Notes under the pieces: model-generated
Databases searched by the model: none
What the model was told of the DNA's origin: nothing
The model's input: the letters and a program-made list of their open reading frames with translations, nothing else
NCBI GenBank assembly: GCA_030668875.1
Contig: DAOVER010000033.1
Span: forward strand, 1-30,828
Source: Candidatus Heimdallarchaeota archaeon
Lineage (GTDB): Archaea; Asgardarchaeota; Heimdallarchaeia; Heimdallarchaeales; Heimdallarchaeaceae
Length of the DNA: 30,828 nt
Direction: 5' to 3'
Shown: piece after piece, positions 24,964 through 30,828 of the stretch
Layout: every line of letters starts with the position of its first letter
Numbering within the stretch: position 1 is the stretch's first letter
Translations under genes and position numbers: made by a program

Positions 24964-25194
24964 TTATAAGTTGACATTTAAAACTTCTTTGACACCGGGA
25001 ACACGTTCTTTTAGAACTTTTTCGACATAACCTGTAAGTGTTAGTTGACTATAGGGACAACCTCTACATGCACCTTGAAGTTCAACACGAACTGTACCTG
25101 TTTCCTCATCAACTTCTTTAAGCTCAATATCTCCACCATCTTGCTGGAGGGCCACTCGGATTTCGTTTAGAGTTGCTTGTACTTTATCTTTCAT
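24964..25194 (-). CDS. nifU: NifU/NfuA C-terminal-domain Fe-S carrier
   Basis: LQQDGGDIEL, VELQGACRGCP, VEKVLKERVPGV. Start likely ATG at 25194; the track starts at 25206. Confidence 0.92.
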   Translation of the reverse strand: MKDKVQATLNEIRVALQQDGGDIELKEVDEETGTVRVELQGACRGCPYSQLTLTGYVEKVLKERVPGVKEVLNVNL

Positions 25195-25278
25195 GATATC
25201 ACGCATCTATATTTGTTTGAGTATCTCATATAACATTTATAAAATGTGCTTTTTATACAAAGTTTTATTTTTCTCAAT

Positions 25279-25491
25279 TTATCTATTCGTTGACATTTCA
25301 ATCCTTCTAAAAGTTTCATTTACAAATGGAACCAAAGCTAGTATAATGTCTCGTTTAAAGACATCTTTTCTCATAATTCTATTATCAGTAAATATAGCTG
25401 TACTTCCACCCTTCTGCTTTATATTTTCCTCTCCAATTAGTTTATCCATTATTTACCCAAGCTCTCGTTCTGGATTGTTGATGAGAGTATC
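25279..25491 (-). pseudogene. yjjX: 3' half of interrupted inosine/xanthosine triphosphatase gene
   Basis: Manual translation DTLINNPERELG*IMDKLIGEENIKQKGGSTAIFTDNRIMRKDVFKRDIILALVPFVNETF matches the YjjX C-terminus (ELGxVMD...KxGxxGxxT...R...ALxPF); internal TAA at 25453-25455. Confidence 0.85.
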
Positions 25492-25640
25492 ATGATGGGT
25501 TATTGTCATGTTGTCATATTAAGACAACCATAGTTGAGCTAGTTTCTTAGAGATCATCATATACAACTATAATAGTTCTATACTCACTCTGAGTGGATAC
25601 ATCACGTATCCTCCTACCCCGTTCACATTGCGTTTAGGCA
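25472..25640 (-). ncRNA. Predicted TnpB omega-RNA (reRNA), copy 1; scaffold overlaps the tnpB 3' end and the guide comes from the yjjX flank
   Basis: Hairpins GGATAC-gtgat-GTATCC (25595-25611) and TATA-G-AACTA-tta-TAGTT-G-TATA (25560-25582). The 5' boundary is a guess. Confidence 0.7.
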
Positions 25641-26925
25641 AGGTTTTCGGATCGCTTTTAACTAATATATTGTATGCAGCATTAACATCAGCATTTATTA
25701 AGTAACCTTTAGAAGAACGGAACAGCCCTCGTTTGATTCTTTTCCCTTTGAACTTCTTTCGATGTTTGGGGAATTCGTTGTCTAGGAAACTGCTCTTGGA
25801 GGTGTATTGTTCAGGGATGGTTTCCACCTTTATTCCTCGCTCTGCTCCTTTATACTTCAAGATATTGATGATTCGCAGGAAAGGGATGGTGACAAACATC
25901 TGGGTGACTTTCTTCCAGAAATGTAATCCTTGTTTCCACAGAGGATTATAGCCTATAATTACTTCATGGAGATCGCGTTCGACCCACAAGTCAACCAAAT
26001 AACTAGTTAACTTATGAATTCCATCTTTCAGTTTCCTCCTCCACTTCTCCTTAAGCTTGTAGTAAGCTTGTCCATAAATCAATCTGTTCTTTCCTTTCAG
26101 CTGTTTCCTTTGCTGTTGACTATATTGTATCTGTAACTCTTTCTGTTTCTTCAAATAGTACTGCGTAATTGATTTAATACCTTTCCCTGCATCTTTGATA
26201 ACAATCGGTTGACCTCCGAGGTTATCTACAAAAGCTGCAAGATTATCCATCCCTAAATCGACTCCACCTTTCCTTATTCTCTTTTTACGGAGCTTTGGTA
26301 AACTTTTCCTATATACTATCTCTAGTGTATATCCTTGTCTGCGAGGAACGATCCTTACTTCTCTTAATTCAGTTTGGGAAGCCATTCTTGTTTTGTAACA
26401 GTATCCCACTTTCTTAGGTAAGATTAACCATCCGTTGACTATCTGTGCCTGTTGATTTGTGAAGATGGTTACTACTTCCCCATCTTTACGTTTATAGTTT
26501 GGTGGGTGGGGCATAGCGAAGAACAGCGAAGGATCCTTTTTCCACTCCTTTAGTGAGTTGAAATATCCCTTCCAATTTCTACCAAGGAGTTTGAGCGTGT
26601 GTTGTGACGTGTGGGCAGGAAGGGTGCGATAACACTCCTCGTGCTTAAGAAGCTTATCTAAATCATTATAGAACAGAAGCCTATTCTTATTCTTCAATGA
26701 ACCTTTTATCAGAAAATTTGCTCGATTGTAGAGATTTTTTACTTGATGACAAAGCTTGCTTAAGTTTGGATGATAGTCTACTTCTATACACTCCACACGC
26801 AGAACCTTAGTCATCGCTTCTTTCACTCTATTTTCTTATAAAAACCCCGGTAATATTCGTCTAAAAGTATCCATATAAACTGACTATTTGTATAACTTAA
26901 TATGACAAGGGGACAAAAATGTTTT
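25492..26925 (-). mobile_element. Non-autonomous tnpB-only insertion sequence (IS200/IS605 or IS607 superfamily; end geometry favours IS607-like), 1434 bp
   Basis: Removal restores in-frame yjjX (ATT TAT|GAT ACT CTC). The right-end motif GACAA-N3-GACAA-N5-CATCAT is shared with the second copy. Inverted end repeats include a perfect 13-mer (25511-25523 / 26896-26908). No tnpA inside. Confidence 0.88.
25567..26826 (-). CDS. tnpB: RNA-guided endonuclease TnpB with rearranged RuvC-II and no Zn finger
   Basis: LYNRAN, GVDLG (D190), VIIGYN (G292), IPEQYTSK (E339), INADVNAAYNI (D380). Start may be ATG at 26814. Confidence 0.95.
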   Translation of the reverse strand: MKEAMTKVLRVECIEVDYHPNLSKLCHQVKNLYNRANFLIKGSLKNKNRLLFYNDLDKLLKHEECYRTLPAHTSQHTLKLLGRNWKGYFNSLKEWKKDPSLFFAMPHPPNYKRKDGEVVTIFTNQQAQIVNGWLILPKKVGYCYKTRMASQTELREVRIVPRRQGYTLEIVYRKSLPKLRKKRIRKGGVDLGMDNLAAFVDNLGGQPIVIKDAGKGIKSITQYYLKKQKELQIQYSQQQRKQLKGKNRLIYGQAYYKLKEKWRRKLKDGIHKLTSYLVDLWVERDLHEVIIGYNPLWKQGLHFWKKVTQMFVTIPFLRIINILKYKGAERGIKVETIPEQYTSKSSFLDNEFPKHRKKFKGKRIKRGLFRSSKGYLINADVNAAYNILVKSDPKTLPKRNVNGVGGYVMYPLRVSIELL

Positions 26926-27270
26926 ATAAATAATTGATGGTGTGGCCATCCTACCTCCTCCTGTAATAGATTCCTCCCCTTTTTTATTGCTTACACCAAT
27001 GTACCATGTAAGAAAGGATCCATAAGCATCTCTGTTTAATCCTCCCTCAAGGCTCACATAATAATCTGCTTTTTCTAACCTTCTTGCAATTTTCAGTCTA
27101 CTTAATGCTGATTTTAGTGTTTCTTCTGATGTCATTGGTTGGCTTGTAACACCCTCATATAAACTCAAATCCAAAGTTTTGTACTCAATTTCTGTGAAAT
27201 AAGATGCAAAAGCTTCTTTAACAGCTTGAATTTTCACTGGATTTTTTGAACAAATTGTTATTTTTAGCAT
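26926..27270 (-). pseudogene. yjjX: 5' part (115 codons) of interrupted inosine/xanthosine triphosphatase gene
   Basis: SKNPVKIQAV, GVTSQPM, VSLEGG, GGGRM motifs. The last 13 aa of the track ORF (26884-26925) are IS read-through. Confidence 0.88.
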
Positions 27271-30387: not shown

Positions 30388-30550
30388 CTTTAAACATTTT
30401 AACATTTATGATGTTCATTTGTCTTCTTGTCTTCTTGGACAAAGCTAGGTACATGTCGTGCTTAGAGCTCATGATATAGAGCGAAGACACTCTATACTCA
30501 CTCTTAGTGGATACATCACGTATCCTCCTACCCCGTTCACCTTGCGTTTA
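30388..30550 (-). ncRNA. Predicted TnpB omega-RNA, copy 2
   Basis: Same GGATAC/GTATCC hairpin (30509-30525) and an alternative-sequence hairpin TATAGAG-tgtcttcg-CTCTATA (30475-30496). Boundaries approximate. Confidence 0.7.
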
Positions 30551-30828
30551 GGCAAGGCTTTCGGATCGCTTTTTATCAATATATTATATGCGGCATTAAC
30601 GTCAGCATTGATCAAGTGGCCTTGAGCAGAACGAAACAACCCTCGGTGGATCCTTTTTCCCTTGTACTTTTTCCGTTCTTTAGGGAATTCATTATCCAGG
30701 AAACTGCTCTTGGAAGTGTATTGTTCAGGAATAGTCTCCACCTTTATCCCTTGCTCAGCTCCTTTGTACTTTAGGATATCGATGATTTTCAGGAAGGGGA
30801 TGGTGACGAACATCTGGGTGGTCTTTTT
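30408..30828 (-). mobile_element. Right end of a second related tnpB element (partial; runs off the window)
   Basis: Same terminal motif GACAA-gaa-GACAA-atgaa-CATCAT, ending at 30408; homology to copy 1 stops there. Confidence 0.88.
30469..30828 (-). CDS. tnpB: TnpB C-terminal part, copy 2 (partial)
   Basis: Frame open to the window edge (KKTTQMFVTIPF...). 97 of 110 residues identical to copy 1 by manual count; PEQYTS and NADVN intact. Confidence 0.93.
   Translation of the reverse strand, partial: KKTTQMFVTIPFLKIIDILKYKGAEQGIKVETIPEQYTSKSSFLDNEFPKERKKYKGKRIHRGLFRSAQGHLINADVNAAYNILIKSDPKALPKRKVNGVGGYVMYPLRVSIECLRSIS

Follow-up and report, generated by a model that had tools for sequence, protein, structure and literature searches.

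Which enzyme moves an insertion sequence that carries only an RNA-guided nuclease and whose two ends mirror each other around an AT dinucleotide? This question is raised by a tnpB-only element in the genome of a Candidatus Heimdallarchaeota archaeon (assembly GCA_030668875.1, here G000). The element lies on contig DAOVER010000033.1, of which positions 1 to 30,828 of the forward strand form the window, i.e. the whole stretch of 30,828 nucleotides that was analysed. TnpB is the ancestor of Cas12 and of the eukaryotic Fanzors, and two vehicles of TnpB are textbook cases: IS605 with single-strand movement and hairpin ends, and IS607 with a serine recombinase, a GG core and asymmetric ends. Our comparisons confirm the features first read from the sequence and show a non-autonomous, IS607-derived TnpB/omegaRNA insertion sequence with true terminal inverted repeats (TIRs) and an AT junction; they support the IS607-like interpretation of the element in part. 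We give a nearly even chance to the explanation that a serine recombinase acting in trans moves it.

Ends, junctions and empty sites

The limits of the element were set by the empty sites described below and by about 30 other genomic copies, to which homology begins and ends exactly at these positions. The main features are:

25492..26927, minus strand (tnpB sense): the whole tnpB-only insertion sequence, 1436 bp counting the AT at both ends
26896..26927, minus strand: left end (LE) inverted-repeat arm, with AT (26927-26926), AAAACATTT, TTGTC (26916-26912), CCC, TTGTC (26908-26904) and ATATTAAG, without a hairpin
25492..25523, plus strand: right end (RE) inverted-repeat arm read inward, with AT (25492-25493), GATGGGTTA, TTGTC (25503-25507), ATG, TTGTC (25511-25515) and ATATTAAG
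25510..25528, minus strand: hairpin of 6 bp found in the RE only, GTTGTC, 7-nt loop, GACAAC

The sole gene between these ends is tnpB (25567-26814), and on its strand the element finishes ...CCCATCAT. Both ends consist of AT, 9 nt, TTGTC, 3 nt and TTGTC, and form true inverted repeats of about 30 bp (24-32 nt). A tnpB-only element with symmetric inverted ends and TTGTC at positions 12-16 and 20-24 had been proposed in the sequence-only reading of this DNA. All strings quoted there are present, and the first and second motif occupied these positions at both ends in 13 of the 13 copies in which both ends could be parsed. The repeat search returned the arms 25500-25523 and 26896-26919 (24 nt, 83% complementary). 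Taken alone, this repeat is not above chance because the same 6.3 kb contains other inverted repeats of 21-26 nt with 73-83%; its significance comes from the recurrence of the motif pattern across copies. The pattern ATRA-N7-TTGTC-N3-TWGTC (R, purine; W, A or T) was found 39 times in G000, compared to 0 occurrences of a reversed control, and was restricted to one family among the 82 genomes of the class. The TIR pattern was searched in 40 relatives and then in all of these 82 genomes, and a shorter pattern in 5 genomes. A looser end pattern was also tried, gave mostly noise and was discarded.

While the 9 nt between AT and the first motif vary at the left end, the two TTGTC units are conserved. 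All left ends begin with AT-(A/G)-A, and the right ends on the tnpB strand terminate with CATCAT in 38 of 38 cases. Moreover, the LE and RE of one copy co-vary: spacer and neighbouring bases shared 114 identities compared to 99.6 +/- 4.4 with shuffled partners (p about 0.001). Since the two ends of the same copy are more alike than ends across copies, one protein probably reads both. The RE differs from the LE in its hairpin, which lies 18 nt from the tip and is indicated by folding and by compensatory changes (TTGTC/GACAA to TAGTC/GACTA; outer pair G:C, C:G or T:G). The inner TTGTC unit forms the 3' arm of this hairpin, and the 5' arm is provided by a third copy of the motif in inverted orientation. 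No hairpin was found at the LE on either strand, with DNA fold z-scores of +0.1 to +0.9 in four copies (+0.9 on both strands at the copy in the window).

In the alignment of junctions that the sequence-only reading had suggested, an AT stood at the junction of every end collected and the TTGTC spacing was kept. The insertion interrupts a gene, which is present in two parts:

26928..27270, minus strand: N-terminal part of an interrupted DUF84 (YjjX-type NTPase) gene (Pfam NTPase_I-T, profile positions 1-109 of 162; orthologue comparison)
25279..25491, minus strand: C-terminal part of the same DUF84 gene (orthologue comparison)

The last bases of the N-terminal part, ...ATTATTT, directly precede the AT of the LE. 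The orthologous gene is uninterrupted in the sister genomes G010 and G002, which read ...ATTT-AT-GATAC..., and at the site of a further copy (G000:C18:27362) the genomes G016 and G010 read ...AATT-AT-GAATC... In addition, the assembled contigs of four metagenome runs were examined. In one contig from a marine-sediment run, which stems from an approximately 89%-identical strain, 25491 is followed directly by 26926; 1434 bases are skipped, and two letters fit either side. An RE-LE circle joint was not seen in these contigs, in which rare forms would not appear, so that this result carries no weight regarding circles. The empty sites therefore carry a single AT, as had been read from the sequence, and no other duplication. 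The flanks of the two sites in sister genomes are 85-88% identical and the insertions are species-specific. The C-terminal part of the DUF84 gene contains an extra in-frame TAA (25455-25453) where the orthologues in sister genomes have GAA or GAT, and the gene is therefore decaying after the insertion. The listed open reading frame (ORF) 25193-25495 on the plus strand is spurious.

For the target, 31 left and 38 right junctions with distinct flanks were used; because part of this set was chosen with AT in the pattern, the claim of an AT at the junction rests on the other end collections. Position -2 was T in 27/31 and position -1 T in 31/31, followed by the AT, a purine at +1 in 29/38 and A at +2 in 29/38. 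The target thus reads TTAT-RA (the hyphen marks the end of the AT), one step from the palindrome TTATAA centred on AT. Such a two-sided, near-palindromic target suggests that a symmetric enzyme recognises the DNA as a duplex. The empty site itself does not decide between three mechanisms, namely crossover at a 2-bp core, duplication of a 2-bp target and cleavage at a TTAT/TCAT pair, because each of them predicts one AT. Therefore, we compared the enzymes and the ancestry of the TnpB.

Copies of the element bear on the question whether it is still mobile. The host assembly (3.23 Mb, 33.8% G+C, 99 contigs, 92% complete, encoding the archaeal Hjc resolvase) holds about 30 diverged copies or fragments that are 66-95% identical, the best-matching pair reaching only 95.5%. 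Most full-length copies encode an intact TnpB of 415-419 amino acids (aa), and frameshifts occur in the copies on contigs C31 and C92. A second family member reaches into the window:

30408..30828, minus strand: copy 2, the RE and the last ~115 codons, cut by the contig end

From 30408 inward its end reads AT-GATGTTCAT-TTGTC-TTC-TTGTC-TTC-TTGGAC. A solo end remnant of about 30 bp lies at G000:C3:14616-14639, and at G000:C56:19147-19267 two truncated ends of different subfamilies stand back to back, 73 bp apart. One could propose that all these copies are immobile relics whose transposition stopped when the transposase was lost, the ends being conserved by shared descent and by the scaffold role of the RE. 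The frameshifted copies on C31 and C92, the remnants on C3 and C56, the limited identity of the closest pair and the failure to find a transposase with matching ends in the searched loci and genomes would fit. Nevertheless, we regard this as improbable. The insertions are species-specific, two sites being empty in sister genomes, and the interrupted gene aligns over its full length with one in-frame stop, so that the insertion is probably not ancient. Besides, the LE motifs match the RE motifs in conservation and co-vary with them although they have no role in an RNA, and most full-length copies retain an intact TnpB. Finally, metagenome assemblies break at near-identical repeats and hence conceal them, and many copies of the element are located at contig ends.

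The nuclease, its predicted guide RNA and the ancestry of the TnpB

The interior of the element comprises a nuclease gene and a putative guide RNA module:

25567..26814, minus strand: tnpB, 415 aa, ATG at 26814 (Pfam OrfB_IS605 and Cas12f1-like_TNB; NCBIfam guided_TnpB)
25494..25660, minus strand: predicted omegaRNA (reRNA) scaffold, comprising the last ~95 nt of tnpB and the RE (nucleotide conservation and covarying pairs)
25476..25491, minus strand: predicted guide portion of the omegaRNA, the flank directly 3' of the RE (after the IS605/IS607 TnpB model; PMC10711439; bioRxiv 10.1101/2023.11.20.567912)
26835..26850, minus strand: archaeal promoter-like box CCGGGGTTTTTATAAG (left-end alignment, conserved in all copies)

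The ORF listing starts tnpB at GTG 26826; we took ATG 26814 as the start. The protein scored 140 bits with guided_TnpB (cut-off 100) and lacks zinc-finger cysteines. D186 in RuvC-I (GVDLG) and D376 in RuvC-III (NADVNAA) are invariant. The canonical position of the RuvC-II glutamate is occupied by G288 (VIIGYN), which aligned with the catalytic glutamate of a solved Cas12f (IQMEDL ~ vviGyn) in a profile search of the PDB; a single-sequence search of the PDB reached only an AI-designed nuclease. An invariant E335 (PEQYTSK) is located two residues ahead of the YTSK motif, with S341/S342 in the same region, and completes the triad of D186, E335 and D376. This relocated-glutamate arrangement has been described for Fanzors and a subset of TnpBs (Yoon et al., PMC10711439). 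As the IS607-type outgroup TnpBs also have the relocated glutamate, it is a feature of the clade and not peculiar to the TIR family.

In the scaffold region two conserved stems lie within the coding sequence, and its covarying pairs (C:G / A:T / T:G; T:A / C:G / G:C; G:C / A:T) lead us to infer that the region is an RNA. An Rfam search of the element gave no family matches. The predicted guide together with the TTAT left of the LE, which resembles a target-adjacent motif (TAM), would match the rejoined empty site. The promoter-like box (core GGGGTTTTTATAAG) lies about 21 nt upstream of the ATG and presumably acts as promoter of tnpB.

Relatives were collected down to 37% identity from 1.8 billion cluster representatives and a metagenome scan. 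Among the six nearest outgroup clusters looked up, two had a gene of about 196 aa with HTH_17/MerR and Resolvase domains abutting tnpB and one had a 67-aa remnant of the helix-turn-helix (HTH). Of 73 outgroup TnpB loci (37-47% identity) examined by tblastn, 17 had an IS607-type tnpA, either intact or frameshifted, immediately upstream, 5 had remnants and 0 had a Y1 transposase. In a tree of 104 TnpBs the TTGTC family formed one clade (SH-aLRT 100), and TnpBs with a serine-type tnpA occurred at scattered positions in every other clade, on either side of the midpoint root. Because serine tnpA genes or their remnants, and no Y1 genes, are found among the neighbouring TnpBs, the TTGTC family descends from IS607-type elements, and on this comparison of sequences IS607 ancestry applies to its TnpB lineage. 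Autonomous relatives of the IS607 type (L096, L154, L122, L126, L128 and L130) have the LE tip ATATAG(C/T)C and the RE TCATAGCCT (or GATAACCT), and their crossover dinucleotide is not GG. The TCAT contained in TCATAGCCT may be homologous to the terminal CATCAT of the TTGTC family.

The sister of the TTGTC family is a pair of solo elements (L110/L120), one of which also ends with CATCAT. L110 (1-205 and 1370-1470) carries a solo TnpB that is 41-44% identical, and a tRNA-like sequence (...GGTTCAAATCCGC...CCACCA-TTAT) immediately precedes it with its 3' end. The right end of L110 finishes with CATCAT, and the 12-nt string AACTCCCTTACG is found both upstream and just past this end. On inspection, the ends of L110/L120 had neither TTGTC repeats nor a TIR.

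The ancestry also bears on movement of the IS200/IS605 type. Here a Y1/HUH TnpA acting in trans would move single-stranded DNA as in the IS1341 group, the element would be inserted 3' of TTAT, the RE would be cleaved after TCAT and the identity of the two AT would be a by-product. TTAT precedes the LE in 27/31 copies (T-AT in 31/31), the RE always finishes with TCAT, no duplication beyond the prediction of this model was seen and the hairpin of the RE is subterminal. Like IS1341-type elements and the archaeal PATE derivatives, the element is tnpB-only and about 1.4 kb long with many diverged copies per genome, lacks a classical target duplication, has a short T-rich motif 5' of the LE and a guide RNA overlapping the RE; strongly diverged copies with tnpB alone are a typical finding for IS1341-type elements in archaea (PMC3119063). 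However, those elements form hairpins at both ends on one strand, have no TIRs and depend on a Y1 TnpA, whereas the LE here has no hairpin and the ends are inverted, not direct, repeats. Y1_Tnp (PF01797) had no match in G000 and 23 other genus genomes and none at 80 metagenomic TnpB loci; its matches were limited to 3 of 40 relatives, which belong to other families that lack the element. Moreover, the preference on the 3' side of the target is not predicted by a 5'-tetranucleotide rule, and a Y1 gene was found at 0 of the 73 outgroup loci compared to 22 with serine tnpA or a remnant. Thus, the type of target, the motif geometry, the co-evolving ends, the missing LE hairpin, the lack of Y1 and the IS607 ancestry make this explanation highly improbable, and support the judgement of the sequence-only reading that the element is not IS200/IS605-like.

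Candidate enzymes acting in trans

The element had been read as non-autonomous, and this is supported: tnpB starts about 105 nt from the LE in every copy, and no inverted pair of ends is more than 1.44 kb apart. The search for an autonomous copy with a serine-recombinase or Y1 tnpA, which had been recommended, was negative. In the 82 genomes of the class all inverted end pairs were 1.41-1.44 kb apart, with no longer pair and no transposase between them, and tblastn found no tnpA near family members at about 110 fetched TnpB loci (31 genome and 80 metagenome loci). None of the fetched loci with a TnpB of at least 59% identity had a tnpA, and the fetched family members had no gene upstream of tnpB.

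Resolvase-domain genes were found in 21 of the 23 genus genomes. G000 has five, three of which are of the IS607 type with a MerR HTH and a catalytic domain (196 aa). With 163.8 bits in NCBIfam transpos_IS607 (cut-off 110) they are bona fide IS607 transposases. The other two, of 238 and 249 aa, have the catalytic domain first, are single-copy and have no recognised DNA-binding domain:

L003:1489-2205 (G000:C18:25768-26484): small serine recombinase gene
L004:1489-2238 (G000:C29:40648-41397): small serine recombinase gene

One or two such small serine recombinases are present in nearly every genus genome. The C18 locus is syntenic over 3.1 kb with 70-88% identity across the genus, and the gene is therefore chromosomal rather than part of an insertion sequence. 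We consider the small serine recombinases as candidate trans-acting recombinases. The insertion of the element beside the C18 recombinase is specific to G000.

The resident IS607-type tnpA was rejected as the cognate enzyme: it sits in an element with a 638-aa TnpB and unrelated ends (ACCGTAGTCAAC... / ...AACGTGCGT). This separate element (L002:1208-3387, G000:C48:36104-38849; also L001 and L005) consists of the 196-aa tnpA followed by the 638-aa ORF, which has no Pfam match in its first 480 aa, between the ends ACCGTAGTCAAC... and ...CATAACGTGCGT. The copy on C15 is a deletion derivative in which tnpA is joined straight to the right end. The 86-bp right end (L001:1913-1998, G000:C15:31398-31483; ...CCCCTCAACGCACGTGAGGGG...GTTTCATAACGTGCGT) has about 30 copies in G000 with 89-99% identity, many at contig starts, which far outnumber those of tnpA. 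Possibly these are guide-RNA modules that stand alone, or they belong as right ends to elements that were not assembled.

A DDE transposase could be an alternative to a serine recombinase. In this case, a cut-and-paste TIR transposon would have captured the IS607-derived tnpB/omegaRNA module, a DDE enzyme in trans would make 2-bp staggered cuts at the AT in TTATRA, and the AT would be a target-site duplication (TSD). The true TIRs of about 30 bp with both ends co-varying, the near-palindromic target and the invariant dinucleotide on both sides with one in the empty site, as TA in IS630/mariner, are consistent with this. The DDE-associated TnpBs (DDE-1 to DDE-6, e.g. IS630-linked; Altae-Tran et al. 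2023) and the Fanzor2*/Fanzor1 proteins (Yoon et al. 2023) share with the element symmetric TIRs around a tnpB-type gene, a fixed junction dinucleotide, a TIR that doubles as the 3' guide-RNA scaffold and a nuclease of IS607-type ancestry. Unlike in these systems, no DDE gene is present here in cis or recognisable in trans, the junction is AT and not TA and the host is archaeal; in addition, RuvC-I has DLG instead of the DPG of Fanzors. No DDE element of G000 has matching ends. The IS481-like element (ends TGTTAAC..., 16-bp duplications) and two DDE_Tnp_1 (IS5/IS4-like) elements with the ends AAGCATGTCCC... and TAGTACTTCC... have unrelated ends and different duplications and were rejected as mobilisers. 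Only some Pfam families were searched, and among these IS630 (DDE_3), IS256 (Transposase_mut), IS110 and Cas1/casposase were not found in G000. Besides, the bases just after the AT, which would be the tips, are variable at the LE (AA, GA, then anything), which is unusual for DDE termini, and no autonomous partner was found in the 82 genomes. We regard a DDE enzyme as a somewhat unlikely explanation.

The IS481-like (rve-type DDE) element is found at G000:C22:9517-10520 (1004 bp, inverted ends TGTTAACTC...) with at least 5 further copies; its 16-bp target duplications are unusually long.

We favour a duplex recombinase acting at AT because of the two-sided near-palindromic target, the two motifs that lie roughly a helical turn away from the junction behind a variable tip, and the co-evolving ends. 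The motif geometry resembles that of known IS607-type systems: in IS1535, the TnpA footprint covers two motifs located within bp 10-28 of the right end (PMC6188088), and CboIStron carries short motifs in inverted orientation, no further than 40-60 bp from its ends, and a core-containing target/TAM, TGGG (bioRxiv 10.1101/2023.11.20.567912). With the IS607 family (IS607, IS1535, ISC1926, CboIStron) the element shares an identical dinucleotide at both ends and once in the target without duplication, short motifs that recur 10-30 bp inward from the tips, a target motif in which the core is contained and which equals the presumed TAM (TGGG there, TTAT here), a relocated-glutamate TnpB, and nearest tnpA-bearing TnpB relatives that are IS607-type. 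It differs in that no copy has a tnpA, whereas IS607 carries a MerR-HTH and serine-recombinase tnpA upstream. The core would be the self-complementary AT instead of the usual GG, true 30-bp inverted repeats replace asymmetric ends, the base after the RE is preferred (purine) but not fixed, and the ends of the co-resident IS607 element are unrelated.

Several of these points, and others, weigh against a serine recombinase of the IS607 type. A self-complementary AT core provides no polarity for a serine recombinase. IS607 ends have been described as asymmetric and mostly GG-terminated (PMC6188088, PMC10691335), and a survey of TnpBs reported TIRs in all DDE-associated groups while the ends of serine-associated ones were asymmetric (PMC10691335). 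Similarly, IS607-derived Fanzor2 genes were captured by TIR/TSD transposons, the TIR and TSD joining the guide-RNA scaffold (PMC10711439). The tip similarity of the autonomous IS607 relatives is direct, not inverted, and they showed no TIRs or TTGTC repeats on inspection. The negative searches for an autonomous copy and for a nearby tnpA and the unrelated ends of the resident tnpA element count in the same direction. Furthermore, a TTGTC pair beside serine-recombinase genes was found at none of 30 loci of relatives, apart from the chance neighbour at C18. Seven element-bearing genus genomes, e.g. G009 (13 ends) and G011 (9 ends), show no IS607-type tnpA, their assemblies being only 81-90% complete; the co-occurrence of element and IS607-type tnpA across the genus is inconsistent, and uninformative given the incomplete assemblies. 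Recent movement is also not demonstrated because no pair of copies in G000 is more than 95.5% identical. Thus, in the proposal of an IS607-type element with an AT core the shared AT and the TnpB ancestry stood, whereas the autonomous serine copy was missing, the ends of the resident tnpA did not match and the symmetry departed from IS607 ends as described.

The small serine recombinases suggest a further comparison. In res site I of Tn3/gamma-delta, the small serine recombinases cut at the AT in the middle of the centre TTATAA. Near-palindromes centred on AT are likewise found in the element, at its predicted circle joint and its preferred target, with a motif about one helical turn from the centre; the orientation and sequence of the motif differ, and no accessory sites are evident here. 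A broader proposal is that Heimdall archaea host a class of TnpB/omegaRNA-only elements with symmetric ends and recombination at a central AT that is served by a chromosomal mobiliser, e.g. the syntenic small serine recombinases or an unrecognised transposase. We rate this proposal as unlikely.

A possible mode of movement and its meaning

Returning to the serine recombinase in trans, movement of the element may be pictured as follows. The element carries the RNA-guided nuclease module only, i.e. tnpB with its own putative promoter and a predicted omegaRNA scaffold overlapping the right end, in a family of IS607 descent that has lost tnpA and gained symmetric inverted-repeat ends of about 30 bp. 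A double-strand DNA recombinase encoded elsewhere would most likely mobilise it. At both ends this enzyme would bind the pair of TTGTC units, which are spaced by 8 bp at positions 12-24, and it would exchange strands at the AT common to both ends and the target TTAT-RA. Excision would yield a circle whose joint, ...CCCATC-AT-RA..., is a crossover site of near-palindromic sequence, and the donor would be resealed with a single AT. The enzyme would most likely be a serine recombinase, either an IS607-type TnpA or one of the two small genus-conserved serine recombinases. With a TAM of about TTAT and a guide identical to the right flank, the TnpB-omegaRNA complex would subsequently cleave the resealed donor and thereby restore the element, as shown for IS605 and IS607. 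In this scheme we infer which recombinase acts, that a circle is formed, which TAM is used and that the element is active.

The way in which a TnpB travels determines how its guide RNA is defined. What is described here is an IS607-derived, relocated-glutamate TnpB between TIRs with AT junctions, without a transposase of its own and with dozens of copies in Asgard archaea. Beyond the sequence-only reading, the target TTAT-RA, the lack of an LE hairpin, the co-varying ends and the overlap of the RE with a covarying guide-RNA scaffold are new. The well-defined ends, the target and the empty sites make the element amenable to excision and TAM assays.

If a serine recombinase moves the element, the IS607 mechanism would tolerate a palindromic core and symmetric ends and would act purely in trans. 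If a DDE enzyme does, the capture of TnpB by TIR transposons, which has been deemed the route of the eukaryotic Fanzors, would also have occurred in archaea. Either way the RE repeat must serve both the transposase and the guide RNA, which makes it a compact case of dual constraint. Should a chromosomal mobiliser be responsible, TnpB would have a third means of transport in addition to IS605 (Y1) and IS607 (TnpA-Ser). The capture of relocated-glutamate TnpBs by TIR transposons, known from the Fanzors, would then also have a counterpart in prokaryotes, namely in those archaea that are most closely related to eukaryotes.

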